From contig CAWGQF010000011.1 in the NCBI GenBank assembly GCA_963824775.1, positions 60,389 to 124,388 on the forward strand: a stretch of DNA of 64,000 bases. The letters are read 5' to 3'. Made by a program: the position numbers and the translations under genes. Below the pieces are notes generated by a model that was not told where the DNA came from, did not search any database, and saw only the letters and a program-made list of their open reading frames with translations. Positions 46,476-64,000 of this stretch are shown here, piece by piece. Positions within the stretch are counted from its first letter, which is position 1; every line of letters begins with the position of its first letter. The DNA comes from an uncultured Actinomycetes bacterium (GTDB taxonomy: Bacteria > Actinomycetota > Thermoleophilia > Gaiellales > Gaiellaceae).

Positions 46476-46479
46476 GCGG

Positions 46480-46515
46480 CTCTCTCCCCTTTGTCTACTA
46501 ACTTGGTGGAGAGAG
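46480..46515 (-). promoter_or_regulatory. Possible SD-sequestering hairpin in the leader of the sulfate-binding-protein gene.
   Basis: In the mRNA, CUCUCUCC (46515-46508) can pair with GGAGAGAG of the SD (46487-46480), leaving a 20-nt loop. Confidence 0.3.
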
Positions 46516-46618
46516 ATTCCTAGCCGAGCCGGACGGCGCGCGTCAAATCGGAACCGCCACCGGCCGGAGTTCTAAGCTCCCGCCATGCCGAGGCGGCGGA
46601 GGACGCAGGGGCTCGAGC

Positions 46619-48494: not shown

Positions 48495-48665
48495 ACCTCC
48501 TCGGCGGCCGCACGGCGCTCGTCCTCTCGTCGATCCTCGTCGTGCTCGGGCTCGTCGTTCTCGTCGAGACCGCAGTCGTCGGCGGCGGCACTCGGCTACC
48601 TCCTCGGCGCGCTGCTCGTCCTCGCGGGCGGGCTCCGCCTCTACCTGGCGAGGCGCGTGTGGCTA
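48491..48665 (+). CDS. Possible small two-helix membrane protein. The 3' end is uncertain because of a frame break near 48590.
   Basis: ATGA overlap with the upstream stop. MNLLGGRTALVLSSILVVLGLVVLVETAVVGGG is followed in the next frame by LGYLLGALLVLAGGLRLYLARR. Confidence 0.35.
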
Positions 48666-50530
48666 AGAAGCGTCCCGTCCTCGCCCGCGTCCTCGGCGCC
48701 CGCTCGATCGGAGCGGTGGCCTACGGCGAGATCGGCTCGTCGCTCTTCGTCGCGCTCGGGATCGTCGCCTTGTACGCAGGCGCGCTCCTGCCGTGGGTGC
48801 TCCTCGCGGTCGGGATCCTGTTCTTCTGCGTCGCGCTCTCGTACGCGGAGGGTGTCGCCGCGATCCCGGAGACGGGCGGCGGCGCGATGCTCGCGCGGCG
48901 CGCCTTCAACGACCCGATCGGCTTCCTGACCGGCTGGGTCCTCCTGCTCGACTACGTCGTCGTGATCGCGCTCGCGGCGCTCTTCGTGCCGCACTACGCG
49001 GGCGCGGCCTTCGGCTGGGACGCGATCGACGAACGAGCCGTGGGACGGGATCGTCGGCATCGGCGTGATCGCGGCCGTCGCCGTCGTGCGTCTCGTCCGC
49101 CGGTCGGCCATGTACCGCGTCGTGCTCGCCGTCGCGGCGCTGTCGCTTCGTGACACAGCTCGTCCTCGTCGTCCTCGGCCTCGTGTTCGTCTTCGATCCG
49201 GGCGATCTCGGCGGCACGCGACCGGGCTTCGAGGATGTCGCGTTCGCGCTCGCCCTCGCGACGCTCGCCTACACGGGGCTCGAGACGGTCGCGAACTACG
49301 CGTCCGAGACGCGCGAGCCGGGGCGCTCCCTTCCGCGTAGCCTCTTCGGCGCCCTTGCGGCCGTGGTCGCGGTCGCGTTCCTGCTCGGGCCTGGTCGGCG
49401 TCTCGGTGCCGGAACTGGGAGGAAGCGAGCTCGGCGCGCCGCTCGTCGGCGTGGCCGAGGCGCTGGACGGCGAGCTCCCCGCGGCCCTCGTCGACGTTCT
49501 GTCGGTCGCCGTGTCGCTGAGCGCGGTCGTCGTGCTCCTGGCCGCGATCACGACCTCGATCTCGGGAGTCGGCCGCCTGACGCTCTCGCTTGGCCGCCAC
49601 GCGATGCTGCCTCGTGCGTTCGCCCGCCTCAGCCCGCGCACCCTCGATCGCGCCGGCCGCGATCGTCGGCGCGGCCGGGACGGCGTGCGGGCTCCTCGTG
49701 ATCGCGGAGCTCGCCGAGACGGAGGTGCGGTTCCTCGCGAGCCTCTACAGCTTCGGCGTCCTGCTCGCGTTCGTCGCGGCGCAGGTCGCGGTGCTGCGGC
49801 TGCGGCGGACGGAGCCCGACCTGGAGCGCCCCTTCCGCGTGCCCGCGCAACGTTCGGATCGGCGGAGTCGAGCTTCCGCTGCCGGCGCTCGTCGGCGTGC
49901 CGCTCACGTTGCTGCTCTGGGTCGCCGCGTTCGCCACGCACGACGCCGCCCGGATCGGCGGCCCGCTCTGGGTCGCAGCGGGGGCCGTCCTCTACGTGCT
50001 CGTTCGCCGCTCGCGCCAGGAACGGCTGCTCGAGCATGTGAAGCCGGCGGTGGCGGATCTCGTGCCGGAGCCGGAGGGCGTGTACGAGAACATCCTCGTT
50101 CCGCTCAAGCTCGGCCTGATCGGCGAGGAGGTGCTCGCGACCGCGCTTCGCCTCGCGGAGGAACGACGGTCGCACGTCCGCGTGCTGCACGTGATCCGCG
50201 TCCCGCTCGACCTCGCGCTCGACGCCGACCTGCCCGACGAGGAGCGGCGGGCGCAGGAGTCCCTCGACGAGATCCACGAGCTGGCGACCGAGCACGGCGT
50301 CGAGCTCGACGCGAAGATCGTCCGCTCGCGCGCGCTCGGCGCGGCGATCGTCGACGAGGCCGACTCGCAGGGCGCCGACCTCATCGTCCTCGGATCGGCG
50401 CCGCGCTGGCGCCGGCAGTCACGGTTCTTCAGCCCGACGGTGGACTACGTGCTGCGAAAGGCGTCGTGCGAGGTCATGGTGGTGACCTATCCCCAGGGCG
50501 TTCTCGACGAGAGTACAGTGGAGCGCATGA
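48659..50530 (+). pseudogene. Second APC-family permease::USP fusion (paralog of 46619..48494). About 6 frame breaks as sequenced.
   Basis: GTG 48659. Pieces lie in ORFs 48491.., 49065.., 49150.., 49235.., 49590.., 49897.. (GEIGSSLFVALG.., TLAYTGLETVANYASETREPG, USP ..ILVPLKLGLIGEEVL..ADLIVLGS..). TGA 50528-50530 overlaps the trkA ATG. Confidence 0.8.
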
Positions 50531-50937
50531 AGGCGCTGATCGTCGGCTGCGGCCGGGTCGGCTCGGCGCTCGCCCGGACGCTCAACGAGGCGGGCTGGGC
50601 GGTCTCCGTCGTCGACGAGACGGAGGAAGCGCTCGGCCGGCTCGGAGAGGCGTGGCCCGGTGAGTTCCACCTCGGGCACGGCATGGACACGGCCGTCCTC
50701 GAGCAGGCTGGGATCGAAGACGCGGACACGGTCATCGTCGCAACGGACGGCGACAACACGAACATCGTCGTTGCCCAGGTGGCGAAGAACCGCTACGGCG
50801 TCGAGTCGGTCGGCGTGCGCATCCTCGACCCAGCCCGGGCCGACTTCTACTCGGACCGCGGGCTGCACGTCGTCTCCCCGACGCGTGACGCGATCCAGTC
50901 GCTCGCGGCGTGGGCGACGAGGGACGGGCGCGGCTGA
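50527..50937 (+). CDS. trkA: TrkA-N (RCK, NAD-binding) domain protein.
   Basis: MKALIVGCGRVGSALARTL Rossmann start. 136 aa. Confidence 0.85.
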   Translation: MKALIVGCGRVGSALARTLNEAGWAVSVVDETEEALGRLGEAWPGEFHLGHGMDTAVLEQAGIEDADTVIVATDGDNTNIVVAQVAKNRYGVESVGVRILDPARADFYSDRGLHVVSPTRDAIQSLAAWATRDGRG

Positions 50938-51610
50938 TGTTCTGCGTCGTCGTGGGGGGTGGGAAGGTCGGCTCGAACGTGACCCGGACGCTGCTCGGTC
51001 TGCGGCCACGAGGTGGTCGTCGTGGAGCAGGACCGCGCGCGCTACGCCCGTCTCGACGAGGAGTTCGAGCACGCCGCCGTCCTCGGCGACGGGACCGAGC
51101 TCTTCGTCCTCGACCAGGCTGGGCTGCGCCGTCCGCCGGACGCGGTCGTCGCCGTCACGGGCGACGACGAGGACAACCTCGTCATCTGCCAGCTCGCCGC
51201 GCGAGCGCTACGGCGTGGGAAACGTGATCGCGCGGGTGAACGACCCGCGGAACCAGCAGCTCTTCGACCTCCTGGAGATCTCCCCGACCGTGTCGGCGAC
51301 CTCGATGGTGCTCGCCCTCATCCAGCACGAGGTGCCGGAGCACGAGCTCGTCCACCTGCTCGAGCTCCGCAAGGAGCACCTCGAGATCGTCGAGGTGGAG
51401 ATCGCAGCGGGCGCGAGCGCGGCCGGCAAGCGGATCGAGGAGCTTCGCCTCCCCGCAACTGCGCGGCTCATCTCGGTCATGCGGAACGGGAAGGCCGAGA
51501 TCGCCGTCGGCTCCACCGAGCTCCATCCCGGCGACCAGGTCCTCGCGGTCCTGGAGCCCGGCGGCGAGGAGGAGCTCCGCCGCCAGCTGCTCGCCGCCAA
51601 GTCGTCCTAG
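50937..51610 (+). CDS. trkA: TrkA family protein (RCK N- and C-domains). Two +1 frame breaks (about 51000 and 51200).
   Basis: MFCVVVGGGKVGSNV.. / ..HEVVVVEQDRARYARLDEEF..VTGDDEDNLVICQLA / ..RYGVGNVIARVNDPRNQ..VEVEIAAGASAAGKRIEELRLP... Confidence 0.8.
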
Positions 51611-52200
51611 AGCCCTGCGGCGAGCGCCCGTTCGACGGCTGCTTCAGCGGCCGCGACATGCTCGTGTGCTCGCACGACCCTGTCGTCACCCTCCTTCGTC
51701 CCGAGGTTGATGGCGACGAGGTTCGCCGTCGCCCGCGCGGCCGCGGCCGCGAGCACCGCTCCTGTCACCGCGTCGCCTCGCAGATTGGGGTTCCCGTTCT
51801 CCGCGGCGAGCGCGCCGAGGCTCGCAACCTCCGACGCGTCACGCGCGATCTCGAGGGGGATCGCCGCGGCACGCGAGAGCGCGTTGCCGATCGCGGTGTT
51901 CCTGACGTCCGGCTCGAGGCTCCTGGGGAGGCGGAGCGCGGTAAGAACATCCTCGTACGCCGCTCCGTCCGCGGGCGCGAGGGGTGCGAGGCGGCGTCGC
52001 AGCTCGTCGGCCCGGTCGACGACGTCGGCCGCATCGGGCCAGATCTCGGTGGAGAAGCGTGCCGCCATCGCGACGAGGCCCGCGCCCATGGCCGCGACGA
52101 GCGCGGCGGTCGAGCCGCCGCCGGGAGCGGGCTTCTCAGAGGCGATCGCGTCGAGGAGCTCGTCCACGCGCTGTGCGAGGAAGGTCTCCACGGTCGCCAT
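51607..52200 (-). CDS. Cyclodeaminase/cyclohydrolase family protein (FTCD C-terminal domain; methenyl-THF cyclohydrolase-like).
   Basis: Intact 197-aa all-helical protein. ..PAPGGGSTAALVAAMGAGLVAMAA.. is the hallmark of this family. Confidence 0.8.
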   Translation of the reverse strand: MATVETFLAQRVDELLDAIASEKPAPGGGSTAALVAAMGAGLVAMAARFSTEIWPDAADVVDRADELRRRLAPLAPADGAAYEDVLTALRLPRSLEPDVRNTAIGNALSRAAAIPLEIARDASEVASLGALAAENGNPNLRGDAVTGAVLAAAAARATANLVAINLGTKEGDDRVVRAHEHVAAAEAAVERALAAGL

Positions 52201-52213
52201 ACGGCGATTGTGA

Positions 52214-53881
52214 CTAGAACAGCCCGACGGTGTTGCCGTTCTCGTCGATGTCGATCGAGAACGCGGCCGGCTTGACGCCGTAGCCAGGCATGGTCTGCAT
52301 GTCGCCGAGCAGCGGGACGAGCCAGCCGGCGCCCGTGTACTGGCGAATGTCCCGCACCGTCACCGCGAAGCCGGTCGGCGCGTTCAGGAGCCCGGGGTCG
52401 TGGGAGATCGAGAGGTGCGTCTTCGCCATGCAAATGGGGAGCTTGTCGAAACCAACCTCGTTGAACTGCGCGATCTTCTGGCGGGCGGCCGGCAGGTACA
52501 CGACGTCGTCCGCGCCGTAGACGCGCTTGCAGATCGCGTCGATCTTCTCCTCGATGGACGCATCGAGCTCGTAGAGCGGTCGGAAGTCCGACGGCGCGTC
52601 GGCCGCGGCGACGACGGCTTCCGCAAGGGCCGTCGCCCCCTCGCCGCCGCGCTCGAACGCCTCGTTCACCTCCGCGGCCATCGCGCCGCCCTCCAGCGCG
52701 AGCCGCCCGAGCGTCTCGATCTCCTCGTCGGTGTCTCCCGGGAACCGGTTCACGGCCACGACCGCGTTCAGGCCGAACTCCTTCACGATCCCGAGGTGGC
52801 GCTGCATGTTCGCGGCGCCGCGCTCGATCGCCTCGGCCCCGCCCTCGGGATCCCCGCCGTGGTGCTTGAGCGCGCGGGCCGTTGCCACGAGCACGACCGC
52901 GCTCGGGCGCAGGTCGCCGACCCGGCAAACGATGTCGAAGAACTTCTCCATCCCCATGTCTGCGCCGAAGCCGGACTCGGTCACCGCGTAGTCGCCGAGC
53001 TTGAGCGCGCTGCGGGTGGCGACGAGCGAGTTGTTCCCGTGGGCGATGTTGGCGAAGGGCCCGCAGTGGAGGAAGGCCGGCTGGCCCTCCAGCGTCTGGA
53101 CGAGATTCGGCTTGATCGCGTCCTTCAGGAGCACCGCCATCGCGCCTGCGGCCTTGAGCTGCTCGGCGGTGACAGGCTCGCCCTCGTACGTGTAGCCGAC
53201 CGTGATCGCCCCCAGCCGCTCGCGCAGGTCGAAGAGGTCGCGGGCCACCGCGACGATGGCCATCACCTCGGAGGCCGCCGTGATGTCGAACCCGGTCTCG
53301 CGCACGTAGCCGTTCGTGCGGCCGCCGAGGCCGACGACGACTTGCCGCAGGGCGCGGTCGTTGATGTCGACGCAGCGCCGCCAGCTCACCGACAGCGGGT
53401 CGATCCCGAGCGCGTTCTTGTGGAGGAGGTGTGCCTCCAGGAGCGCCGCCAGCAGGTTGTTCGCGGCGCCGATCGCGTGGATGTCGCCCGTGAAGTGGAG
53501 GTTCATGTCCTCCATCGGGACGACCTGCGCGTAGCCTCCGCCCGCCGCGCCGCCCTTTATCCCGAAGACCGGCCCGACCGAGGCCTCGCGCAGGCAGAGG
53601 ACGGGGCTCTTGCCGATCGCGCCGAGGCCCTGCGTCAAGGAGACGGACGTGGTCGTCTTCCCCTCACCCGCCTTCGTGGGCGTGATCGCCGTGACGTCGA
53701 TCAGTTTTCCGTCCGGGCGGCCGGCGAGGCGGTCGAGGACGGAGAGGGAGACCTTCGCCTTGAACCGACCGTAGAGGTCGAACTCCTCCTCGCCGAGGCC
53801 GAGCTCGGCGGCGATCTCCGCGATCGGCCGAAGCTCCGCCTCCTGGGCGATCTCGAGGCTCGAAGGCATCTGGGTCGCCAT
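52214..53881 (-). CDS. fhs: Formate-tetrahydrofolate ligase.
   Basis: ..ITPTKAGEGKTTTSVSL.., ..FANIAHGNNS.., ..PICMAKTHLSISHD... Intact. ATG 53881 (MATQMPSSLEIAQ). Confidence 0.95.
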   Translation of the reverse strand: MATQMPSSLEIAQEAELRPIAEIAAELGLGEEEFDLYGRFKAKVSLSVLDRLAGRPDGKLIDVTAITPTKAGEGKTTTSVSLTQGLGAIGKSPVLCLREASVGPVFGIKGGAAGGGYAQVVPMEDMNLHFTGDIHAIGAANNLLAALLEAHLLHKNALGIDPLSVSWRRCVDINDRALRQVVVGLGGRTNGYVRETGFDITAASEVMAIVAVARDLFDLRERLGAITVGYTYEGEPVTAEQLKAAGAMAVLLKDAIKPNLVQTLEGQPAFLHCGPFANIAHGNNSLVATRSALKLGDYAVTESGFGADMGMEKFFDIVCRVGDLRPSAVVLVATARALKHHGGDPEGGAEAIERGAANMQRHLGIVKEFGLNAVVAVNRFPGDTDEEIETLGRLALEGGAMAAEVNEAFERGGEGATALAEAVVAAADAPSDFRPLYELDASIEEKIDAICKRVYGADDVVYLPAARQKIAQFNEVGFDKLPICMAKTHLSISHDPGLLNAPTGFAVTVRDIRQYTGAGWLVPLLGDMQTMPGYGVKPAAFSIDIDENGNTVGLF

Positions 53882-53987
53882 CGCTCGCGCGACGATATCG
53901 CCTCGTGATGGTTGTTCGGTGATGGGGTGCCGTCGGGCCACCAGCCGGAGGTGCCGGAATCACCGAAAAGCCATCTAGAATCGGCCG

Positions 53988-55115
53988 GTGGGCGAGGCGC
54001 TTCAGGGCGTGCGCGCGGCCGTATTCGACGGTCCGCGAGCGGTCTCGATCGAGGAGCTCTCGCTCGAGGCGCCGCGTCGAGAGGAGGTGCTCGTCCGGCT
54101 CGGGGCGAGCGGCGTCTGCCACTCGGACCTACACGTCGTGGACGGTGAGTGGCCGCGGCCGACGCCCGTCGTGATGGGACACGAGGGCGCGGGTGTCGTC
54201 GAGGCGGTCGGCGAGGGGGTCCGCGACGTCGCGCCGGGCGACCACGTCGTCCTCTCGTGGTTCTACTCGTGTCGCCGCTGCCGCCACTGCGTGGAGGGAC
54301 GCGCGTGGGCCTGTACCGGGACGCAGGCGGGACGATGCGTGCTGGACGACGGGACGACGCGGTTTCGGCGCCCGTCCGGGGAGGACGTCTACACGTATCT
54401 GGCGGTCGGATCGATGGCCGAGCGATCGGTGGTGCCCGAGGCGGCCGCGATCCCCGTTCCACGAGAGCTGCCGCTCGATGTGGCGGCGCTCATCGGTTGC
54501 GCAGTGACGACGGGCGTGGGTGCGGTCGTGAACACGGCGCGGGTTCCGGCCGGCTCATCGGTCGTCGTGCTCGGCTGCGGCGGCGTCGGGCTCTCGGTCG
54601 TCATGGGCGCGGCGCTCGCGGGTGCGAGCCCGATCGTCGCCGTCGACCTCTCGGGCGAGAAGCTGACCCTCGCGCGCGAGGTGGGCGCGACGCACGCCGT
54701 CCGCGGCGACGGCGACGTCGACGGTGAGGTCGTAGCGCTCACGGACGGCGGCGCCGACTACGCCTTCGAGGCGATCGGGCTCGTCCCGACCGTCGAGCTC
54801 GTGCCGACGCTCCTCCGCTCGGGCGGTGTGGGCGTCCTCGTCGGGCTGACCGCGGCCGGCGTCCGCGCCTCGTTCGACGTCTACTCGTTCGTGGACGCGG
54901 GAAAGACCCTCGTCGGCTCGATCTACGGCGGCGCGGTCCCCGCGGTGGACTTCCCGCGCCTCGCCCGGCTCTACCTGGACGGCAGGCTCCCGCTGGACAG
55001 GCTCGTGTCGCACCGGATCGGCCTCGACGACGTGGACGGGGCCTTCGCCGCCATGCGCCGCGGCGAGCGGGCCCGCTCGGTGGTGGTGTTCGAGGACGGG
55101 GGCGGTCGCCGCTAG
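53988..55115 (+). CDS. Zn-dependent alcohol dehydrogenase (class-III / thiol-dependent formaldehyde-dehydrogenase-like).
   Basis: GVCHSDLH, GHEGAGVVEAVG, CRRCRHC structural-Zn Cys cluster, VLGCGGVGLS. Intact 375 aa. Confidence 0.9.
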   Translation: MGEALQGVRAAVFDGPRAVSIEELSLEAPRREEVLVRLGASGVCHSDLHVVDGEWPRPTPVVMGHEGAGVVEAVGEGVRDVAPGDHVVLSWFYSCRRCRHCVEGRAWACTGTQAGRCVLDDGTTRFRRPSGEDVYTYLAVGSMAERSVVPEAAAIPVPRELPLDVAALIGCAVTTGVGAVVNTARVPAGSSVVVLGCGGVGLSVVMGAALAGASPIVAVDLSGEKLTLAREVGATHAVRGDGDVDGEVVALTDGGADYAFEAIGLVPTVELVPTLLRSGGVGVLVGLTAAGVRASFDVYSFVDAGKTLVGSIYGGAVPAVDFPRLARLYLDGRLPLDRLVSHRIGLDDVDGAFAAMRRGERARSVVVFEDGGGRR

Positions 55116-55167
55116 GTTACTCGCGCGCGCGTCTGATTTCGGGTCCCGACCCGCCCCCTGCTCGGCT
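55116..55167 (+). repeat. Left copy of a perfect 52-bp inverted repeat (GTTACTCGCGCGCGCGTCTGATTTCGGGTCCCGACCCGCCCCCTGCTCGGCT).
   Basis: It is the exact reverse complement of 59093-59144 and starts on the base after the adh stop codon. Confidence 0.95.
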
Positions 55168-55230
55168 CCAGCCTATCGCCCGAAACGCCACGCGTGGCGC
55201 ACCAAAGCGTGCCGAATTTGTGCCGAGTCA

Positions 55231-57967
55231 TCACCGGGCGGCAGGGCGAAGCGCGGGCCGCGCCGGCTCGATGCGGATCGCGCAGACCTTGTACTCGGGG
55301 ATCCCGATCAGCGAGTCGGTCACGTCGTTCGTGAGCAGGTTCACGCGTTGCTCGGCGAAGTGCAGCGCCATCCAGACGAGCCCGGGATAGACGCGGTCGC
55401 CGATCGCGGCCCGCGCCTCGATCTGGCCGCGCCGCGAGACGAGCCGCACCCAGTCGCCCTGCTCGACGCCGATCGCCGACGCGTCCTCGGGCGACATCTC
55501 GACGAACGGATCCTCCTGCTTGTCGGTGACGCCGTCCTCGCGCATGGTCATCGTCGCCGAGTTGTAGTGGTAGAGCGTGCGCCCGGTCGAGAGGACGAGC
55601 GGGTACTCGGAGTCAGGCTCCTCGATCGGCGGCTGGTACTCCACCGGGAAGAACTTGCCGCGCCCGCTGGCCCGTGCCGGCCTGGGCGCGTGGAGGTACG
55701 CCGTGCCCGGATCGTCGCGGTCGACGCACGGCCACTGAAGCCCGACCTCGTCGAGGCGGTCGTAGCGGATGCCCGACCATAGCGGCGCAAGGTCGGCGAA
55801 CTCGTCCCAGACCTGCTCGGCGCCCGAGTACTCCGGCCACTCGGCGCCCATCTCCTTGGCGAGGTCGAGCACGATCCGCAGGTCCTCGCGCGCGTTACCG
55901 GGGAGGGGCACCGCGCGACGCACGCGGTTCACGCGCCGCTCCGTGTTCGTGAACGTCCCCTCCTTCTCCGCGAAGCTCGAGGCCGGCAGGACGACGTCGG
56001 CGAACTCTCGCGCGGACTCGTTCAGGAAGATGTCCTGCGAGACGAGGAAGTCGAGCCCTGCGAGGCCGTGCTCGACGTGCTTCGCGTTCGGCTCCGTGTG
56101 AGCCGGGTTCTCACCGATGAGGTAGAAGGCGCGGATCCGCCCGTCCTGCATCCCCGAGATCATCTGGTCGAGCCTGTAGCCGGGGGTCTCGGGCACCTCG
56201 ACTCCCCAGCGCGCTGCGAACCTTGCGCGGATCTCGGGGTCGTCCGCCGGCTGGTAGCCGGGGAGGTAAGCCGGGTTGGCGCCCGCGTCATTCAACCCCT
56301 GGACGTTGTTCTGCCCGCGCAAGGCGTTCAGCCCGGTCGACTCGTAGCCGAGGTGGCCCGTCATGAGGACGAGGTTCGAGAGCGACCAGATGTTGTCGAC
56401 CGCACAGGCGTGCTCGGTGATTCCGAGGGTGTAGAAGATCCCCGCGTGCCGCTCGGCGGCGTAGTTGCGGGCCGTCCAGCGGATGTCCTCGGCCGAGACC
56501 CCGGTAGCCCGTTCGGCCTCCTCGGGCGTGTAGCGGGAGACGACCTCGCGGACGGCGTCGAAGTCCTCCGTGTGCTCGCGGATGAACTCGTCGTCCTGGA
56601 GGCCCTCTTCGAGGATCGTGTGCATCATCGCGTTCAGGAGCCACACGTCCGTCCCGGGCCGGAGCTGGAGGTGGCGTTTGGCGAGCTTCGTCAGCCAGAT
56701 CTTCCGGGGATCGGCGACGACGAGCGTCGCGCCCTTCCGCACCGCCTTCTTCATGCGGAGGGCAAGCACCGGGTGCGCCTCGGTCGTATTCGACCCGATC
56801 ACCAGGAGGAAGCGCGCGTTCTCGATCTCCGGGATCGAGTTGGTGCTGGCTCCTCTGCCTAACGACCTGACCAGGCCGTAGAGGGTCGGAGCGTGTCAGG
56901 TGGCTTCGCAGGAGTGGACGGAGTTCGTCCCGATCGCCGTCCGCGCGAGCTTTTGGATGAGGAAGTTCTCCTCCATCGTCAGCCGCGCCGATGCGAGCAT
57001 CCCGATCGTCTGCGGGCCGTGCTCCTCCTTCACACGGTTGAGCCCGTCGGCGGCGACCCGCAGTGCGTGCTCCCACGTCGTCGGGTGGAGCTCGCCGTCC
57101 TCGCCGCGGACGAGCGGGTCGGTGAGCCGATCCGGGTGATGGACGAAGTTGAACGCGAATCGTCCCTTGACGCAGAGGTTGCCTTCGTTCGAGCAGGTAG
57201 GTCGGGTCGGATGTCACCTTGACGATGCGCTTCGTCTCCGGATCGACATTCAGGTCGACCTGGCAGCCGACGCCGCAGTACGTGCACGTCGTCTTGACCT
57301 TCTCGAGCCCGCGCTCGGGCCGCTCCGTGCCCTCCTCGAACTTCTCGTAGATGGCGCCGGTCGGGCAGGCGGAGAGGCAGCCGCCACAGAGCTCGCACTC
57401 CGTGTCGAGCCAGGAATGGCCGTGCGTGGGGACGATGCGCGCGTGCGGCCCACGCCCCTCGAGCGAGAGCGCCGAGCACTGCATGACCTCTTGCGTGTAG
57501 CGGACGCAGCGCGCACACAGGATGCATGCGTCCGGGTCGTAGCCCATGAAACGGTTGCGGTCGTCGTACGGCTCGCGCCTCGAGTCGGGAAGGAGGAACG
57601 GCGCCTCCGCGTCGATCTCCTCCGCCATGTCGACGAGCTCGTTCGGCCGGCCACCCGGATCCGGGTTCACGTGCTCGGCGAGGAGCATCTCCGTCAGCGT
57701 CTTCCGGAACTGCGGGACGTCCGAGTTCGTCGAGACGACGAGGCCCTCGGCGACGCGCGTCGCGCAGGCCGGAAGCGGACGCGGCGAGCCCTCGACGCCG
57801 ACGACGCACATGCGGCAGCCGCCATACGGGTCGAGCTTGTCGTCGTGGCAGAGCGTGGGGATGAAGACGCCGTGACGGGCGGCCGCATGGACGAGAAGCT
57901 CGCCTTCGGGGGCGGCGACGGTCTTCCCGTCGAGCGTGAACTCGACGACCCTGGCCATAGCACTCAT
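55231..57967 (-). CDS. fdhA: Formate dehydrogenase alpha subunit (NuoG-like Fe-S N-terminus plus molybdopterin domain). It has an in-frame TGA (56898-56896) at the Sec/Cys Mo-ligand position and one +1 frame break near 57190.
   Basis: MSAMARVVEFTLDGK..CHDDKLDPYGGCRMCVV..CILCARCVRYT..CGGCLSACPTGA..TTCTYCGVGC (ORF 56288..58300). Then NEGNLCVKGRFAFNF..NSVHSCEAT-TGA-HAPTLYGLVRSLGRGASTNS.. continues into ORF 55231..56802 in the same frame. Confidence 0.9.
56852..56898 (-). other. UGA codon plus candidate SECIS-like hairpin 11 nt downstream.
   Basis: mRNA: UGA CACGCUCCGAC CCUCU-ACG-GCCU-GGUCAGGUCGUU-AGGC-AGAGG. This gives 5+4 bp with a 3-nt bulge and a 12-nt loop containing AGGUC. It was folded by eye only. 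Confidence 0.4.
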
Positions 57968-58021
57968 CGTAACGCGCCACACCCCTGGTCGACTCACGCC
58001 GAGCGGTCTTAGACTTGTGGT

Positions 58022-58367
58022 GTGTCGACGCCCGAGAGCGAGCGTGCGCAGGTGGGGCAGGAGTTCGAGGCCGCCTTCGCTGCGCGGAAGGAACTCGGCG
58101 CCGAGCTCGAGCCTCAGGTGGTCGACTCCTTCATCGACCGCATCGACCGCAAGATCCAGGCGAGGGTGGATGCGCGGTTGAAACGCGCCGACGTCGACAA
58201 GAACGAATCGAAGGAACGCGATCGGGGTCACACTCGGGTCGCTCGGGATCGGCATTCCGCTCACGGGTGCCGCGGGAGGAACGACGGGCCTCGGCGGCAT
58301 TCTCGTCGTCTGGATCGGGATCGTACTCGTGAACTTCGCGTACGCCTTCGGACGCTCGCGTCGCTAG
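58022..58367 (+). CDS. Hypothetical protein with a C-terminal membrane anchor. One +1 frame break at the G4 run near 58225.
   Basis: MSTPESERAQVGQEFEAAFAARKELGAELEPQVVDSFIDRIDRKIQARVD.. is followed in the next frame by GVTLGSLGIGIPLTGAAGGTTGLGGILVVWIGIVLVNFAYAF. Confidence 0.5.
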
Positions 58368-58377
58368 TCTCGCCGCA

Positions 58378-59022
58378 GTGAGCGAGCCTGGCTACAGGGC
58401 CATGCACATCTCGGAGCTCGAGTCCGTGCCGGTGGGGGACAGCCTCGTCTGGCGCCCCGTGCGTCGGACGTTCGGCATCGAGGCGTTCGGCGTGAACGCC
58501 TACACCGCCGAGAACCCCGGCGACGAGATCGTCGAGGAGCACGATGAGAAGGGCTCCGGTGCGGGCGGCCACCAGGAGCTGTACGTCGTAATCGCCGGCC
58601 ACGCAACGTTCACGGTCGACGGCGACGAGATCGACGCCCCGGCGGGCACGCTCGTCTTCCTCCGGGATCCCACGGTGCGCCGGGGCGCGCACGCGAGGGA
58701 GCCGGGCTCGACGGTGCTCGCCGTCGGGGGTGAGCCGGGCGTCCCGTACCGGGTGTCTCCGTGGGAGTACTTCTTTGCCGCGATCCCGTACACGAAGACA
58801 GGTGAGTGGGAGCGCGCGGCCGACACCGTCGCGGAGGGACTCGAGCGCTACCCCGACAATCCGAGCGTCCTCTACAACCTCGGCTGCTTCGAGGCGCAGG
58901 CAGGCCGGCGTGAGGGTGCGCTCGAGCATGTCCGGCGCGCCCTCGAGCTCGACCCCAAGGTTCGCGAGTGGGCGAAGGACGACCCGGATCTCGACTCGAT
59001 CCGCGGCGAGCTCGATCTCTGA
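58378..59022 (+). CDS. Cupin-domain protein with a TPR-like C-terminal extension.
   Basis: Intact 214 aa: ..EEHDEKGSGAGGHQELYVVIAGHATFTVDGDEIDAPAGTLVF.. (cupin), then ..ERYPDNPSVLYNLGCFEAQAGRREGALEHVRRALELDP.. (TPR-like). Confidence 0.7.
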   Translation: MSEPGYRAMHISELESVPVGDSLVWRPVRRTFGIEAFGVNAYTAENPGDEIVEEHDEKGSGAGGHQELYVVIAGHATFTVDGDEIDAPAGTLVFLRDPTVRRGAHAREPGSTVLAVGGEPGVPYRVSPWEYFFAAIPYTKTGEWERAADTVAEGLERYPDNPSVLYNLGCFEAQAGRREGALEHVRRALELDPKVREWAKDDPDLDSIRGELDL

Positions 59023-59092
59023 TCCGGCACAGAGTCGCGCGCAAATCGGCACGTTTTGCGCGCCACAGGTGCGGAATTTGGAACTAGGATGA

Positions 59093-59144
59093 AGCCGAGC
59101 AGGGGGCGGGTCGGGACCCGAAATCAGACGCGCGCGCGAGTAAC
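59093..59144 (-). repeat. Right copy of the perfect 52-bp inverted repeat.
   Basis: Exact reverse complement of 55116-55167. It lies 33 nt downstream of the stop (59178-59180) of the minus-strand NuoE/F-like gene. Confidence 0.95.
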
Positions 59145-59177
59145 TGGTCCAGGCTTGTCCAGGCGCCTCGGCGGGGT

Positions 59178-60785
59178 TCAGGCGGCCTCGGAGGGGTCTC
59201 CGAGCGGCTCGAAGAGGTCGGGCCAGTGGCGGAAGGCGTTCCGCATCGGGAACGGCGCTCCCTGGCCGAGCCCGCAGATCGACGTGGCGACCATCGCGTC
59301 GAGCCACTCCTCGACCTGCCATCGAGGCATCGCGACGCGGCCGGCCTCGAGCTCCTCGAGGAGGTGGTGCATCCCGCGGTTCCCGATCCGGCACGGGGTG
59401 CACTTCTGGCACGACTCCTCGGCGAAGAACCGCATCGTCTCGGCGAGCAGGCGGAGTGGGGAGTAGCGCCTCGGGAAGACCTGGACACCGGCAGACCCCA
59501 CGCCGGCCCCCCACTCGCGTAGCCCCTCGCGCGTGAGCGGGACGTCGAGCGCGGCCGGCGGGAGGATCCCGCTCGCCGCGCCGCCGGGCACGACCGCGCC
59601 GATCTCGTCCGTCGCGCCGCCCCCGTGCTCGTCGACGAGCTCCCGCAGCGTCGTGCCGTTCGGCGCCTCGTAGCATCCGGGCTTCGCGACCGCGCCCGAG
59701 AGCGACCAGAGGCGGACGCCCTTCGCACCGCGCGTCCCGAGCGCCGCCCACGCCTCCCCGCCCATCCGCAGGATCGCAGGGACGTGGGCGAGCGTCTCGA
59801 CGTTGTTGATGAGCGTCGGCCGGCCGAGGTAGCCGACCTGGCTCGGGAAGGGAGGCTTGAGCCGCGGCATGCCGCGGCGTCCCTCCATCGACTCGAGCAT
59901 GGCGGTCTCCTCGCCGCAGATGTACGCGCCCGCGCCCACGACGAGCTCGATGGAGCCCGTCCAGGAGCCCCGCCGCCTGCAGCTCGGCGATCGCTCCCGT
60001 CAGGCGCTGCCGCGCGGTCGCGTACTCCTCGCGCAGGTAGATCGAGCCCCTCGGTCGCCTCCGCGAACTGCATGGCGACGAGCATCCCCTCGAGCATGAG
60101 ATGCGGCCGACGCTCCATGACGTACCGATCCTTGATCGTGCCCGGCTCGCCCTCGTCCGCGTTCACGATGACGTAGCGCGGGGCCGGCTCCCGCGCGACG
60201 GCCTCCCACTTGACCCCGGTCGGGAAGCCGGCGCCGCCGAGGCCGGCGAGGCCGGAGGCCTTGAGCTCCGCGACGATCTCGTCGTGTGAAGGCAACGAGC
60301 GGAGGACGGCGAGGCCCCCGCGGGCCTCGTAGTCGGCCAGCGTCGCGTCGGCCCGGGCGAGATCGACGGAGGGTCCCTCGTTCGTCCGGTGCACAACCTC
60401 GGGCTCGACGGCGTCACCGCGCATCAGCACGGGCGCGAGGTCGCAATGACCGAGACACTCGACGCCGAGAACGGGCCGCCCGTCCGGCGCGTGCTCCTGC
60501 TCGCGCGCGAGGAAGTCCGCAGCCCCCATGCAGTCGCAGACCGGCCCGATGCAGACCCGGACGGCGTCCGTCTGCACCTGGAGGAACGAGTAGAACGAGA
60601 CGACCTCGTGCACCTCCCCGCGGCGGATGTTCATGCGGTCGGCAACAGCGTCGGAGAGCTCGGATGTGATCGGTCCGACCTCCCGGCGGACGCGGCCGAG
60701 GTTGTCGAGGAGGCGTGTCCTCTCGGTCGGCAGCTCCTCGAGGAGCGCGGTGAGCTTGAGGACGTCGATGCCGCGATTCTTGCAC
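59178..60785 (-). pseudogene. NuoE-like::NuoF-like fusion (NAD-linked formate dehydrogenase diaphorase, FdsG/FdsB type), disrupted as sequenced by three +1 frame breaks (about 60770, 60045, 59950).
   Basis: NuoE part ..EVHEVVSFYSFLQ..VCIGPVCDCMG..CLGHCDLAPV. NuoF part GLGGAGFPTGVKW, VNADEGEPGTIKDR, ICGEETAMLESMEG, ESCQKCTPCR. Pieces lie in ORFs 60414..60785, 59084..61867 and 59178..59939. Confidence 0.85.
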
Positions 60786-60814
60786 CCGGGACGCGCGACA
60801 GGGACGATGCGGAC

Positions 60815-61951
60815 GTGCGCGACGAGCTGACCGACCTCGCGAGCCGGCTGGTCGCGATCGACTCCGTGAACCCGGATCTGATTCCCGGCGGCGCCGGAGA
60901 GGGGGAGATCTCGCAGTTCGTCGCCGAGTGGCTGGAGCAGGCCGGGCTCGATGTGAGCCGCGACGAGGTCGCTCCCGGCCGCTGGAACGTCGTGGGGACC
61001 GCCCGTGGCACGGGCGGAGGGCGCACGCTCCTCCTGAACGGCCACCTCGACACCGTCGGCACGGGCGGGATGGAGAGCCCGCACGAGCCGCGGGCCGCGG
61101 ACGGCCGGTTGTACGGCCGCGGCGCCTACGACATGAAGACGTCGATCGCCGCGATCATGCTCGCCGGCGCCCGCGCCAAGGAGCTCGGGCTCCGCGGCGA
61201 CGTCGTCGTCACCGCGGTGGCGGACGAGGAGGTGGCGAGCATCGGGTCGGCCGCCGTCGCGGAGGCGGTTCGCGCCGACGCGGCGATCGTCGCGGAGCCG
61301 ACCGAGGAGCGCGTGGCGATCGCGCATCGCGGGTTTGTCTGGCTCACGATCGAATCGCATGGGGTCGCCGCGCACGGCTCCCGGCCGGAGCTCGGCGTCG
61401 ACGCGATCGCGAAGATGGGGCGCGTTCTCGTCGGCCTCGAGGAGCTCGACCGCTCGCTGCGCGCGGAGCCCTCGCACGAGCTTCTGCGGAGCGGCTCGCT
61501 GCACGCCTCGCTCGTCGAGGGAGGGCAGGAGCTGTCGAGCTACCCCGAGCGGTGCGTGCTCAGGATGGAGCGACGCACGATCCCCGGGGAGACGCCGGAC
61601 GAGGTGGAGGCGGAGGTTCGGTCGCTGCTCGAGCGGGCGGGCGCAGGCGACGACTCGTTCCGGGCCGACGTTCGTGTGGACTTCTCGCGCGCGCCGTTCG
61701 AGACGCCTGCCGGCGACCAGCTGATCGCAACCGTGAAGAAGCACGCCGGCGCGGTCCTGGGATCCGAGCCAGAGACCGTGGGAGTCCCGTTCTGGACGGA
61801 CGCCGCGATCTTCATGGAGGCGGGGATCCCGACCGTCGTCTTCGGCCCGTGCGGGGAAGGCGCGCACGCAGTCGTTGAATGGGTCGACCTGGCGAGCGCC
61901 GCCCGCTGCGCCGAGATCTACGTCGCCGTAGCGGCGGACGTCTGCGCCTGA
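60815..61951 (+). CDS. M20 family metallopeptidase (ArgE/DapE-like deacylase).
   Basis: GTG 60815 inside ORF 60389..61951. ..LLLNGHLDTV.., ..GRGAYDMKTS.., ..VADEEVAS.., ..GEGAHAVVEWV... Confidence 0.85.
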   Translation: MRDELTDLASRLVAIDSVNPDLIPGGAGEGEISQFVAEWLEQAGLDVSRDEVAPGRWNVVGTARGTGGGRTLLLNGHLDTVGTGGMESPHEPRAADGRLYGRGAYDMKTSIAAIMLAGARAKELGLRGDVVVTAVADEEVASIGSAAVAEAVRADAAIVAEPTEERVAIAHRGFVWLTIESHGVAAHGSRPELGVDAIAKMGRVLVGLEELDRSLRAEPSHELLRSGSLHASLVEGGQELSSYPERCVLRMERRTIPGETPDEVEAEVRSLLERAGAGDDSFRADVRVDFSRAPFETPAGDQLIATVKKHAGAVLGSEPETVGVPFWTDAAIFMEAGIPTVVFGPCGEGAHAVVEWVDLASAARCAEIYVAVAADVCA

Positions 61952-61971
61952 CCCTCACCTACCCTTAGAGG

Positions 61972-62754
61972 ATGGCCCTCCCGCCCGCCCACACCGCCGG
62001 CCGCATCGACGTCCTCCGGCTGCCCGAAGGGCGCACCGAGCCCGACGAGCTTGCGGCGGAGGAGCCGCTCGAGATCCGCGTGAACGGCATCCCGGTGGCC
62101 GTGACGATGCGGACGCCGGGCCACGACGAGGAGCTCGCGCTCGGCTTTCTCGTCTCCGAAGGGCTCACGCCGGTCGCGGCCGCTCCGCCCGCCGACCTGG
62201 CCGCCAACACCGTCGACGTCGAGGTTCCCGGCTTCGATCCGGAGGCTCTGCGGCGAAGCTTCTACACCACGTCGTCTTGCGGCGTTTGTGGGAAGGGGGC
62301 GCTCGACGCCGTCGCGGTGGAGGCGCCCCGCGTGGAGGGCAAGCTGACCGTGCCGGCCTCGCTCGTCGCCGAGCTGCCGGACCGGCTCCGCCTCGCGCAG
62401 GCGGCCTTCGCCGCCACGGGCGGGCTGCATGCGACCGGGCTCTTCGACGAGGCCGGTGAGCTCCTCTGCGCGCGCGAGGACGTCGGCCGGCACAACGCGA
62501 TGGACAAGGTGGTCGGCTGGTCGCTCGGTGAGGGTCTTCTGCCGCTCGACGGGCGGATCCTCTGCGTGAGCGGCCGGCTCTCCTTCGAGCTCGTGCAGAA
62601 GGCTGCGGTCGCCGGATGCCCGCTCATGGTCGCGGTCGGTGCGCCGTCCACACTCGCCGTCGATCTCGCCCGGGATCGTGGGATCACCCTCTGCGGCTTC
62701 GTCCGCGACGGCCGCGTGAACGTCTACACGGAGCCGTGGCGCGTCGAGGCGTGA
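61972..62754 (+). CDS. fdhD: Formate dehydrogenase accessory sulfurtransferase FdhD.
   Basis: ..TSSCGVCGKGAL.. and ..EDVGRHNAMDKVVG... Intact 260 aa. Confidence 0.9.
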   Translation: MALPPAHTAGRIDVLRLPEGRTEPDELAAEEPLEIRVNGIPVAVTMRTPGHDEELALGFLVSEGLTPVAAAPPADLAANTVDVEVPGFDPEALRRSFYTTSSCGVCGKGALDAVAVEAPRVEGKLTVPASLVAELPDRLRLAQAAFAATGGLHATGLFDEAGELLCAREDVGRHNAMDKVVGWSLGEGLLPLDGRILCVSGRLSFELVQKAAVAGCPLMVAVGAPSTLAVDLARDRGITLCGFVRDGRVNVYTEPWRVEA

Positions 62755-63281
62755 CCGGCGTCCTCCTCGTCGGGGGTGCGAGCCGGCGCTTCGGCTCCCC
62801 GAAGGCGCTGGCGCGGCTCGAGGGCGAGACGCTCGCCCAGCGCGCCCACCGGACGCTTGCCGAGGCGTTCGGCGAGGTGCTGGTGCTCGGCAAGGTGGCC
62901 GACGCGCTCTCGCTTCCGTTCCCGGTCGTCGACGACGGGTCCGAGCTGCGCGCTCCGATCGTCGGCGTGGCTGCGGCACTCCGGCTCGCACCGACCGCGA
63001 CCGTCGTCGTTCTCCCGACCGACGTGCCCTTCGCGTCGTCGCCCTTCCTCCTGGAGCTCGCCGCCGCGTCACACGACGTCGACGTCGCGCATCACGAGAC
63101 CGGGCCACTCCCCGGCGCGTACCGGCGGACGGCGCTTCCCGTGCTGGAGCGGCGCATCGCCGCCGGAGAGCTCGGGCTCCGCGGCGCGCTCGCCGAGCTG
63201 CGCACGACCGTCGTCGCGTGGAACTCTGACGAGCTCCGCAACGTAAACACGGTGGAGGAGCTCGAAGAGGTGCGCGGATGA
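62751..63281 (+). CDS. mobA: Molybdenum cofactor guanylyltransferase.
   Basis: GTG 62751 overlaps the fdhD stop. VTGVLLVGGASRRFGSPKAL.. and ..VLPTDVPF... Confidence 0.85.
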   Translation: MTGVLLVGGASRRFGSPKALARLEGETLAQRAHRTLAEAFGEVLVLGKVADALSLPFPVVDDGSELRAPIVGVAAALRLAPTATVVVLPTDVPFASSPFLLELAAASHDVDVAHHETGPLPGAYRRTALPVLERRIAAGELGLRGALAELRTTVVAWNSDELRNVNTVEELEEVRG

Positions 63282-64000
63282 AGCTCGTCGCAGTTACGGC
63301 ACTGATCGTGCTCGCAGCGGCCGCGCCGGCCGCTGCCAAGGGCCCGATCGAGCTCCGCGTCTGCGGCGCGTCCGAGTGTGCAACCTTCAAGGCTCCGTTT
63401 GCAGGGATGGCCGATGCGCCGCAGAGCGAGCACGCGAGGCTGGTCACGAGCGTGGCCAACCTCGAGCGGAACTTCGACTTCACGGGGCCGCCGCCTCTCG
63501 CCTCGTACTACGCCCTGACGCTCTCGTCCGACTTCTACGACTGGTCCGACATCGCCTACGTGCCGGAGCACCAGGTGGCGAGGGTCGGGAGCAACTGGGT
63601 CAATCTCAGCGGCGGGCTCGCCGATGCGCTTACGGAGGCGATCGGCGGGCTGGAACCGAAGGCCGCTCCCGAGATCCGGCGCGCGGTCGTGAACGGCCAG
63701 GAGAGCCGCGACCCCGAGGCGTACGCCCTCGCCTTCGGGGAGCTTCCGCCCGCGCAGGCGCCGCCGCCGGGCACGCCGAAGTCGGTCATCCGGCTCGAGA
63801 CGGCGGAGCCGACCCCGTGGACCGACGGCCGGCCGCTCGAGTACTACCCGAGCACGGACACGATCAGCCGCGAGGGCGAGTGGGTGCGGGCGTCCGAGGT
63901 CGTCTCGACGAGGATCGAAGACGACCTCGAGGCCGTGAAGGGCGATGCGGGCGGACGCACCTGGCCCGGGTATCTCACCGGTGCCGCGCTCGTGCTCGCC
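63278..64000 (+). CDS. Secreted hypothetical protein. The 3' end is outside the window.
   Basis: ATGA overlap with the mobA stop. Signal peptide MKLVAVTALIVLAAAAPAAAKG. The frame is open to the last base of the window. Confidence 0.5.
   Translation, partial: MKLVAVTALIVLAAAAPAAAKGPIELRVCGASECATFKAPFAGMADAPQSEHARLVTSVANLERNFDFTGPPPLASYYALTLSSDFYDWSDIAYVPEHQVARVGSNWVNLSGGLADALTEAIGGLEPKAAPEIRRAVVNGQESRDPEAYALAFGELPPAQAPPPGTPKSVIRLETAEPTPWTDGRPLEYYPSTDTISREGEWVRASEVVSTRIEDDLEAVKGDAGGRTWPGYLTGAALVLA

Follow-up and report, generated by a model that had tools for sequence, protein, structure and literature searches.

The TGA at codon 354 of fdhA in this Gaiellaceae soil actinobacterium is very probably a selenocysteine (Sec) codon, placed at the metal ligand of a predicted formate dehydrogenase (FDH) and followed by an RNA hairpin. 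This reading is carried by the position of the codon, its conservation among relatives, a frame that is translated right after the TGA, constraint at the level of nucleotides, and the fit of the hairpin to the model of bacterial SECIS elements. We analyzed a 64-kb stretch of DNA (hereafter, the window) and compared its fdhA with those of 80 species-representative genomes of Gaiellaceae and Gaiellales (76-90% protein identity), and with L001, a contig from an independent assembly. The gene and the codon are located as follows.

55231..57958, minus strand: fdhA, fdsA-type formate dehydrogenase alpha subunit (TIGR01591, Pfam and structure-database matches)
56896..56898, minus strand: UGA codon 354, probable Sec codon at the Mo-ligand position, U-H-A-P (alignment and conservation)

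The gene has 908 codons, given read-through of the TGA and the removal of one extra base, and its 3' end is TGA TGA. The stitched protein matches the NCBIfam profile TIGR01591 (Fdh-alpha) from 1 to 672 of 672, with 766.2 bits for a cut-off of 666.25. Pfam identifies N-terminal 2Fe-2S and 4Fe-4S domains resembling those of NuoG (Fer2_4 and Fer4_Nqo3), and then Molybdop_Fe4S4, Molybdopterin and Molydop_binding. The closest solved relatives are the FdsA chains 9wxb_B and 6tg9_A (E ~1e-200, residues 5-900), and the arginine motif LRGQNNVQG is retained, aligning identically with both. By homology, the gene product is the catalytic alpha subunit of an FdsA-type Mo- or W-bis-MGD formate dehydrogenase. 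Several genes in the vicinity are related to this function.

59178..60700, minus strand: NuoE/NuoF fusion (FdsB/FdsG-like) diaphorase, predicted NAD(P)-side partner (Pfam)
62080..62754, plus strand: fdhD, sulfurtransferase/maturation factor for FDH (Pfam FdhD-NarQ, 220 bits, full length)
62751..63281, plus strand: mobA-like NTP transferase, molybdopterin guanine dinucleotide synthesis (Pfam NTP_transf_3, 88 bits)
52214..53941, minus strand: formate-tetrahydrofolate ligase, a formate-metabolism neighbour (Pfam FTHFS, 809 bits, 2-556 of 556)

The domain order and the active-site block C/U-H-x-P-T are those of the FdsABG enzymes (R. capsulatus 6tg9 and Cupriavidus-type 9wxb), which also have a NuoE/F-like diaphorase gene and fdhD adjacent. 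They differ in their Mo ligand, which is Cys386 and would be Sec in the Gaiellaceae FdhA, and in that NuoE and NuoF are fused here in one gene, whose intact orthologue in one relative (L018) encodes 500 aa. With a NuoG-like Fe-S N-terminus on the alpha subunit and a NuoE/F gene alongside, the enzyme is probably of the FdsABG type, and linkage to NAD is predicted. Since fdhD, mobA and the NuoE/F gene are adjacent, the FDH locus seems to be kept for use.

An earlier reading of the window, made without database searches (the sequence-only reading), had placed a TGA on the minus strand at 56898-56896, 32 codons upstream of the first codon (GTG) of ORF 55231..56802 and in the same frame, and had proposed that it is a probable selenocysteine codon at the Sec/Cys Mo-ligand column. 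The location was confirmed, together with its context, ..TAIGTNSVHSCEAT-TGA-HAPTLYGLVRSLGRGASTNSIPEIEN.., and the proposal is supported by the column, by the conservation of the TGA and by the constrained hairpin. The same reading described the upstream frame as FDH-like and open. It is indeed FDH-like (NEGNLCVKGRFAFNFVHHPDRL), but a stop around position 57214 limits its open stretch to 105 codons.

The alignments agree on the column. The TGA aligns without gaps with Cys386 of R. capsulatus FdsA (6tg9_A; CEAT-U-HAPT vs CARV-C-HSPT) and also with TGA140 of E. coli fdhF, which the RefSeq annotation gives as selenocysteine-containing. The residues that follow, H355-A-P, match UHxP, the motif of FdhA selenoproteins (PMC13188914). 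A Cys is found at this column in 6tg9_A, in 9wxb_B and in the full-length homologues P0091 and P0112 (52% identity), i.e., the in-frame TGA is paired with Cys in the Cys-type homologues. The similarity with E. coli FdhF (Sec140) extends over 675 residues with 39% identity, and a His follows the ligand in both. Unlike the Gaiellaceae protein, FdhF lacks the extra NuoG-like N-terminal Fe-S domain (around 215 residues), and its partner is hydrogenase 3, whereas the Gaiellaceae partner is predicted to be of the NuoE/F type.

The codon is TGA in all 80 related species and in L001, a signal far beyond chance. We looked for TGC or TGT in close relatives, which had been named beforehand as evidence against selenocysteine, and found none: Cys appears at the column only in homologues at around 52% identity. 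The upstream 353 codons are in frame and stop-free in 72 of the 75 loci with sufficient sequence (median identity 80%). Of the 80 relatives, 79 have a downstream open frame of 545-557 codons, and in the remaining one (L070) it runs to 789. One might still take the gene for a Cys-type FDH whose TGA comes from a nonsense mutation or from an error in base calling, as the nearest full-length database homologues have Cys at the column and this assembly does contain errors. The recurrence of TGA in 80 species and an independent contig, with frames intact on both sides, leaves this explanation a vanishingly small probability.

A second explanation is that the gene is truly split, in which case a 353-aa iron-sulfur protein would end at the TGA and a restart would produce a protein of around 512-543 aa, with nothing inserted at position 354. 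This is the reading used by every public annotation. All 118 close database homologues are C-terminal fragments of 507-550 aa starting past the codon-354 column, as expected from gene callers, which take a Sec codon for a stop; the prediction that ORF callers would split the gene at this point is thus borne out. In the public protein collection, the fragments are named "molybdopterin-dependent oxidoreductase" or "YjgC". Yet the annotated starts vary among relatives, and neither product would contain the Mo ligand or the catalytic His. Furthermore, codons +1 to +11 after the TGA have no start codon and nevertheless evolve as coding sequence. The variation in codons +1 to +5 is almost entirely synonymous, which, with the lack of a start codon there, indicates that the frame is translated straight past the TGA. 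A split gene would also leave a conserved GGUC hairpin without a role, and we consider it highly improbable.

The RNA element downstream of the probable Sec codon consists of two nested features.

56862..56879, minus strand: apical hairpin of the probable SECIS (minimum-energy and centroid folds, invariance)
56849..56895 (nt 4-50 after the U of the UGA), minus strand: wider constrained zone, with the lower part of the probable SECIS (third-position codon skew)

The apical hairpin is made of a 5' arm ACGGCCU (56879-56873), a loop GGUC (56872-56869) and a 3' arm AGGUCGU (56868-56862). Its stem of 7 bp is uninterrupted and the loop begins 23 nt after the UGA. The fold energy is -9.6 kcal/mol over 24 nt (z = -3.3, 0 of 200 shuffles equally good) and -21.7 kcal/mol over 61 nt. 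This upper stem is the predicted fold by both minimum energy and centroid, and its seven pairs are present in 80/80 sequences. There is no covariation because the paired positions are invariant; the support for the hairpin comes from invariance and codon bias rather than from covariation. The pairing of the lower stem is ambiguous, being either 15-19/43-47 (CCUCU/AGAGG) or 7-11/46-50 together with 15-17/39-41. The hairpin drawn in the sequence-only reading (CCUCU..GCCU / AGGC-AGAGG) can form in the window, with -10.1 kcal/mol. It is not the best-supported pairing, as its loop has 12 nt and one of its pairs is broken in 22 of the 80 relatives.

The model of bacterial SECIS elements includes a loop of 3-9 nt, an upper stem of 4-16 bp, a G in the first two loop positions, a spacing of 16-37 nt and a minimum free energy <= -7.5 kcal/mol (PMC13188914). 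The Gaiellaceae hairpin lies within all these bounds (4-nt GGUC loop, 7-bp stem, 23-nt spacing, <= -9.6 kcal/mol), and at the level of the model its agreement with the bacterial consensus (bSECISearch) is complete. Its sequence is unusually frozen, as 20 nt never vary throughout a clade of family rank. Rfam gave no match at the gathering score in the window, and a permissive scan of 56600-57300 resulted only in chance-level matches (E >= 0.4).

The 20 invariant nt, TACGGCCTGGTCAGGTCGTT (56880-56861), start 18 nt past the T of the TGA, enclose the hairpin and are the longest invariant run of the gene. In a plain sliding-window analysis of synonymous diversity, two-fold codons subject to GC bias act as a confounder. 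Hence, we limited the synonymous test to 4-/6-fold codons and to invariant runs. Among the 231 columns with conserved 4-/6-fold degenerate residues, just five lack synonymous variation, and they follow one another as codons +7 to +11. Within the hairpin, AGG, TTA and AGA, all rare codons, are fixed. In the wider zone, third codon positions lean to otherwise rare codons: GCT is used in 71/80 sequences (2.7% gene-wide), GGA in 54/80 (6.5%), CTT in 30/80 (2.5%) and ACT in 28/80 (1.2%), whereas ACG, which makes up 55% gene-wide, is found in 0/80. AGG occurs in 80/80 and AGA in 78/80, and a single column holds all 33 TTA codons of the alignment. The SECIS-type hairpin is thus under selection at the nucleotide level. 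The residues that it encodes, Y, V-R and R, differ from those of Cys-type homologues. Because the hairpin is written in the protein's own codons, both these residues and the unusual codons are fixed.

These elements suggest the following mechanism. When the ribosome is at UGA354, the mRNA just downstream would fold into the 7-bp hairpin with its GGUC loop. As the analogy with E. coli fdhF suggests, the elongation factor SelB, carrying Sec-tRNA(Sec), would bind the hairpin and deliver selenocysteine in competition with release factor 2. Translation would proceed into H-A-P-T-L-Y-G-L-V-R-S-L-G-R-G, and the metal ligand at residue 354 would be selenocysteine instead of cysteine.

The E. coli fdhF SECIS is likewise a hairpin in coding sequence and has an identical GGUC apical tetraloop, at +22 to +25. 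In E. coli, G23 and U24 of this loop are contacts of SelB, which also needs U17, a bulged U in the 5' strand of the upper stem (PMC8659212). The Gaiellaceae loop differs in starting at +27 instead of +22, and the 7-bp stem has no bulged U17, the nearest unpaired U being nt 19, below the stem.

We searched for the selenocysteine machinery in the window and in 1.39 Mb of sequence flanking 81 related loci. ARAGORN found no tRNA-Sec in either (the window has no tRNA gene at all), and tblastn found no selA, selB or selD with E. coli SelA, SelB and SelD, whose sequences were verified against PDB 8uzw, 5lzb and 3u0o. These searches confirm the earlier statement that sel genes are absent from the window. 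Further along the source contig, just DnaB and ribosomal-protein genes are reached. In single-selenoprotein organisms, sel genes often adjoin fdhA (PMC5029168), and in other Actinobacteria, the Sec-type fdhA of mycobacteria is found with selA-D (bioRxiv 10.64898/2026.03.03.709296). Here, none of the 80 relatives has sel genes within 10 kb of the gene. If the codon is decoded as proposed, selA, selB, selC and selD would be located elsewhere in the genome. Our search of the literature on selenocysteine in Gaiellales or Thermoleophilia found nothing relevant.

The machinery was not located in the window or in the flanks of the 81 loci, which would fit a SelB-independent read-through or a lineage in which UGA is reassigned to Trp, Gly or Cys. 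Against this stands the common use of TGA as a terminator. It is the usual stop in the lineage, and most of the genes examined end in it, as does fdhA itself in 53 of the 80 relatives; in the window, it terminates fdhD, mobA, the M20 peptidase gene and the TPR gene as well as fdhA. Apart from an ordinary gene boundary, the TGA of fdhA is the sole one in the window that is in frame with coding-like flanks on both sides. We also scanned the window and the 80 loci for other selenoprotein genes, using an in-frame TGA, coding flanks and a G-loop hairpin, and only fdhA recurs. As this TGA is, in addition, coupled to a hairpin fitting the SelB-type SECIS model, reassignment or SelB-independent read-through is extremely unlikely.

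One may also imagine that all Gaiellaceae read the UGA of fdhA without the canonical machinery, with a divergent or missing SelB or SelA, or with insertion of Cys or a different residue at a SECIS-like hairpin. We regard this as very unlikely. A single observation lies behind it: across 80 genomes, no sel gene or tRNA-Sec was seen within 10 kb of fdhA. It is much more likely that a dominant, largely aerobic soil lineage is selenium-dependent for an FdsA-type, probably NAD-linked FDH. The Sec trait is similarly frequent in the aerobic and anaerobic organisms that have been surveyed (PMC5029168).

The extra base removed from the stitched gene lies upstream of the TGA.

57192..57192, minus strand: extra T, minus-strand CTGC[T]CG, frame shift between codons 254 and 257 (L001 and relatives)

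Owing to this base, codons 1-254 (MARVV.., from 57958) are in a different frame from the remainder of the gene. The frameshift is absent from the account given in the sequence-only reading. L001 lacks the extra T, and an ORF of 353 aa runs there as far as the TGA; its fdhA is 99.8% identical to ours, with five mismatches and the indel at 57192 as the sole differences. All 72 relatives with sequence at the site have 6 nt and never 7. Since it is absent from L001 and from all relatives, the insertion most likely reflects an error in the assembly consensus. A metagenome scan for either allele of the site gave no match. A programmed +1 frameshift at 57192 was considered and rejected, because the 7-nt version is found neither in the relatives nor in L001.

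The NuoE/F gene is also broken in this assembly, where it is split into three frames by an extra C at 60044 and a 2-nt gap at 59954, neither of which is in L001. Its first part (60700-60044) matches Pfam 2Fe-2S_thioredx and the N-terminal part of Complex1_51K; the last one (59999-59178) matches the C-terminal part of Complex1_51K, SLBB and NADH_4Fe-4S. In four relatives (L018, L022, L033 and L044), open frames of 974 codons could be taken for a fusion of an upstream gene with fdhA. We rejected this fusion, as the upstream part is the NuoE/F gene read off-frame.

If the frameshift at 57192 and both of those in the NuoE/F gene were real, the enzyme of this strain would be dead. The TGA would then be an ancestral Sec codon in a copy that was recently inactivated. 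In favor of such a pseudogene, all three frame-breaking indels of the 52-64 kb stretch fall in the two genes of the FDH module, while FTHFS, ADH, the M20 peptidase gene, fdhD and mobA keep intact frames. However, no indel is shared with L001, which carries different 1-nt indels of its own, including nine in FTHFS. Indels are numerous relative to mismatches, as in the consensus noise of long reads, and the mismatches are clustered beside the indels. Moreover, the 555 codons past the TGA are stop-free and the product of the 512-aa C-terminal ORF is the same as that of L001. Recent inactivation is thus unlikely.

Sec-type FdhA is the commonest kind of bacterial selenoprotein, and the most widespread, with 822 organisms (PMC5029168). 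The Gaiellaceae case is therefore real but ordinary, and leaves the knowledge of selenocysteine decoding itself unchanged. It does show cleanly how an RNA signal can be frozen in coding sequence, where 20 invariant nt force rare codons. With the catalytic subunit mis-annotated across Gaiellaceae, metabolic reconstructions will also underestimate formate oxidation and overlook a need for selenium. Provided that the codon is read as Sec, selenium would be required for formate metabolism in an entire family of actinobacteria that are abundant in soil and groundwater, which may bear on cultivation. In the formate growth tests of Gaiella occulta, the trace-element solution was listed without selenium (PMC6741124).

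The formate dehydrogenase alpha gene (fdhA) lies on the minus strand, from an ATG at 57958 (MARVVEFTLDG...) to a TGA TGA at 55233-55228, and its product has 908 residues after one TGA is read through and one extra base is taken out. With NCBIfam TIGR01591 'formate dehydrogenase subunit alpha' (cut-off 666), the stitched protein reaches 766 bits; its Pfam domains are Fer2_4, Fer4_Nqo3, Molybdop_Fe4S4, Molybdopterin, and Molydop_binding in this order. Among solved structures, it is closest to 9wxb_B and 6tg9_A, both NAD-dependent FdsA subunits (E ~1e-200, residues 5-900). The TGA (56898-56896) is codon 354 of the gene and is found where the sequence-only reading had placed it, 32 codons before the GTG of ORF 55231..56802, in exactly the context quoted there (..SVHSCEAT-TGA-HAPTLYGLVRSLGRGASTNSIPEIEN..). 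The same reading assigned this codon to the Mo-ligand position, and two alignments agree. Query residues 293-394 match residues 325-426 of 6tg9_A (Rhodobacter capsulatus FdsA) in an ungapped block, so that codon 354 falls on Cys386 (CEAT-U-HAPT vs CARV-C-HSPT), the Mo ligand of that enzyme. Codon 354 is also aligned with codon 140 of E. coli fdhF (local alignment, 39% identity, 675 residues), the sole in-frame TGA of a gene annotated as 'selenocysteine-containing' in the RefSeq genome. The motif at codon 354, U-H-A-P, fits U-H-x-P, which a 2026 review gives as the motif of FdhA selenoproteins (PMC13188914). The enzyme is most plausibly a formate dehydrogenase of the FdsA/FdsB type with Mo- or W-bis-MGD and Sec354 as metal ligand, and is probably NAD(P)-linked. 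The following genes are found near fdhA:

62080-62754, fdhD
62751-63281, mobA-like gene
60700..59178, minus strand, NuoE/NuoF-fusion diaphorase-like gene (NuoE/F gene)
52214-53941, formate-tetrahydrofolate ligase (FTHFS)

The NuoE/F gene directly adjoins fdhA on the same strand in several relatives (loci L018, L022, L033, and L044 were compared). Between the two, the window's lineage has a 114-aa ORF and a TPR-repeat gene (57990-59022, plus strand), on the opposite strand.

A genome scan with one genome per species gave 80 related loci at 76-90% identity, from metagenome-assembled genomes of Gaiellaceae, Gaiellales, Thermoleophilia, and Actinomycetota. All 80 have TGA at the codon 354 column and none has TGC or TGT, which the sequence-only reading would have taken as a sign of a nonsense mutation or base error. 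Of the 75 loci that reach far enough 5' of the TGA, 72 keep its 353 preceding codons open and in frame, with a median identity of 80% to the window; the exceptions are two loci with a 352-codon N-terminus and one (L042) with a frameshift. On the 3' side, the frame is open for 545-557 codons in 79 of the 80 relatives and goes on to 789 in L070. Changes in codons +1 to +5 (H A P T L) are almost all synonymous and there is no start codon among them; the frame is therefore translated directly after the TGA. The same TGA is present in ENA ERZ25039469 contig_212251 (L001, also L082), a near-identical contig from another data set. With TGA in all these records and open frames on both sides, a nonsense mutation or base error is excluded. 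We also rejected a reassignment of TGA in the Gaiellaceae lineage, as TGA stops fdhA itself in 53 of the 80 relatives; in the window, fdhA, fdhD, mobA, an M20 peptidase gene, and the TPR gene end in TGA.

The sequence-only reading expected gene callers to split fdhA at this codon, and public annotations do so. In a search of about 5.8 billion proteins, 118 of the best 120 matches (P0001-P0120) are close homologues (78-100% identity) that begin after the Sec column; all have 507-550 aa, align with no more than the C-terminal 56-60% of the query, and are named 'molybdopterin-dependent oxidoreductase' or 'YjgC'. The first full-length matches among those listed are just 52% identical and have Cys at the ligand column (AAT-C-HAPT in P0112). 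In the annotation of L001, the N-terminal 353-aa piece is a gene of its own. Hence, the split fdhA is a systematic mis-annotation across Gaiellaceae genomes.

We folded the 61 nt from the UGA (numbered from its U). Both the minimum-energy and the centroid fold have a 7-bp stem, ACGGCCU/AGGUCGU (nt 20-26/31-37, window 56879-56873/56868-56862), closed by a GGUC tetraloop (nt 27-30, window 56872-56869). Taken by itself (24 nt), the hairpin folds at -9.6 kcal/mol (z = -3.3), a value reached by none of 200 shuffles. All seven pairs are present in the window and the 80 relatives, which leaves no covariation to count in this stem; hence, we tested for constraint at the nucleotide level over that on the protein. 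The longest invariant run of the aligned gene is the 20-nt TACGGCCTGGTCAGGTCGTT, which begins 18 nt downstream of the T of TGA; the runner-up has 11 nt. Synonymous diversity averages 0.41 across the 231 columns in which a 4- or 6-fold degenerate residue is conserved, and it is zero in just five, the consecutive codons +7 to +11 (GGC CTG GTC AGG TCG). The only columns of the whole gene dominated by AGG, AGA, and TTA are +10, +14, and +12, respectively; the alignment has 33 TTA codons, every one of them in column +12.

Rare codons are also favored on both sides of this core. Nt 9 is U in 71 of the 80 relatives (GCT makes up 2.7% of Ala codons gene-wide) and nt 48 gives GGA in 54 of 80 (6.5% gene-wide). 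At nt 15 there is only C or U: ACT reaches 35% (1.2% of Thr codons gene-wide), and ACG, the commonest Thr codon of the gene (55%), never occurs at this codon (+4). At nt 18, CTT reaches 37%, against 2.5% gene-wide. Since this bias reaches beyond the invariant core, the constrained zone would span about nt 4-50 after the UGA (window 56849-56895, minus strand), a size close to the roughly 40 nt of the E. coli element (PMC8659212). The skew outside the core suggests a lower stem, for which two pairings fit, neither with a compensatory change: 15-19/43-47, favored by the restriction of nt 15 and nt 18 to pyrimidines, and the minimum-energy alternative, 7-11/46-50 with 15-17/39-41. The first of these is the lower part (CCUCU/AGAGG) of the hairpin drawn in the sequence-only reading. 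The upper part of that drawing, GCCU/AGGC, fares less well: it competes with the invariant 7-bp stem, has a 12-nt loop, beyond the size in the consensus model, and loses one pair in 22 of the 80 relatives.

The published consensus of the bacterial SECIS, the RNA hairpin for Sec insertion, calls for a stem of 4-16 bp capped by an apical loop of 3-9 nt, G in the first two loop positions, a distance of 16-37 nt between UGA and loop, and a minimum free energy <= -7.5 kcal/mol (PMC13188914, Fig. 2 legend). The fdhA hairpin fits it on all four points, with a spacing of 23 nt. For comparison, we used the sequence of the E. coli fdhF SECIS, which matches 5421 records, 5412 of them at 99% identity or more (5420 of 5426 E. 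coli genomes). Folded here, it likewise has a GGUC loop, at nt 22-25. Its reported SelB determinants are loop G23 and U24 and the bulged U17 (PMC8659212); the Gaiellaceae element keeps the loop G-U but has no bulged U within its stem, and is thus not a copy of the E. coli type. Rfam gave no family match at the hairpin site or in the window.

The case for Sec354 follows from conservation, Cys/Sec pairing, and the SECIS, on which selenoproteome surveys rely (PMC13188914). SelB with Sec-tRNA(Sec) would bind the GGUC hairpin and thereby recode UGA354. Searches by tblastn with E. coli SelA, SelB, and SelD (queries with full-length matches to PDB 8uzw, 5lzb, and 3u0o) found no selA, selB, or selD at E <=1e-3 in the window, as the sequence-only reading had claimed, or in 81 loci. 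There are no tRNA genes in the window, and the 1.39 Mb around fdhA in the 81 loci hold one, a tRNA-Arg. Since neither the window nor these flanks carry them, the sel genes are not linked to fdhA in Gaiellaceae, in contrast to many organisms with FdhA as their only selenoprotein (PMC5029168). FdhA is the most widespread bacterial selenoprotein, with 822 organisms in one survey, where the Sec trait was about equally frequent in aerobic and anaerobic organisms (PMC5029168). We found no paper reporting Sec in Gaiellales. A Sec-type fdhA in Gaiellaceae is not surprising; it is of use for annotation and possibly for cultivation.

The sequence-only reading missed that codons 1-254 of fdhA are out of frame with the rest, due to an extra T at 57192 (minus strand, CTGC[T]CG). 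L001 has 6 nt (CTGCCG, Leu-Pro) between ..DPTY and NEGNLC.., as do all 72 relatives with sequence there, against 7 in the window (CTGCTCG); the T lies inside the Molybdop_Fe4S4 domain, between its third and fourth Cys. The NuoE/F gene is spread over three frames by a C inserted at 60044 and a 2-nt gap at 59954; in L018 (7440-8942), its orthologue is unbroken, a 500-aa ORF with the domains 2Fe-2S_thioredx, Complex1_51K, SLBB, and NADH_4Fe-4S. These are all three frame-breaking indels of the window's 52-64 kb stretch, and their confinement to the two FDH-module genes would fit a module that is really decaying in this strain. We find such decay improbable: L001 shares none of these indels but has its own, of which the NuoE/F gene carries two (~60324 and ~59460 in window coordinates), FTHFS nine, and ADH one. 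In fdhA, L001 differs from the window (99.8% identity) by five mismatches and the 57192 indel only. Over window 45389-64000, the two are 98% identical along 11.9 kb, with many 1-nt indels, and 89.9% identical along the next 6.7 kb, with 221 gap openings. In both assemblies, the contig names and an indel count that is high relative to mismatches suggest long-read consensus noise, so that any frameshift in either record calls for caution. L042 (CAVVIB010000023.1) has its frame break ~27 codons upstream of the TGA and is the sole relative broken just 5' of the Sec codon; as another long-read genome, it probably has a consensus error of this kind. Elsewhere in the window, a 411-codon frame (49702-50937, plus strand) joins a universal stress protein domain and TrkA_N, which are separate short genes in the annotation of L001; it may be a real fusion or an indel artefact.
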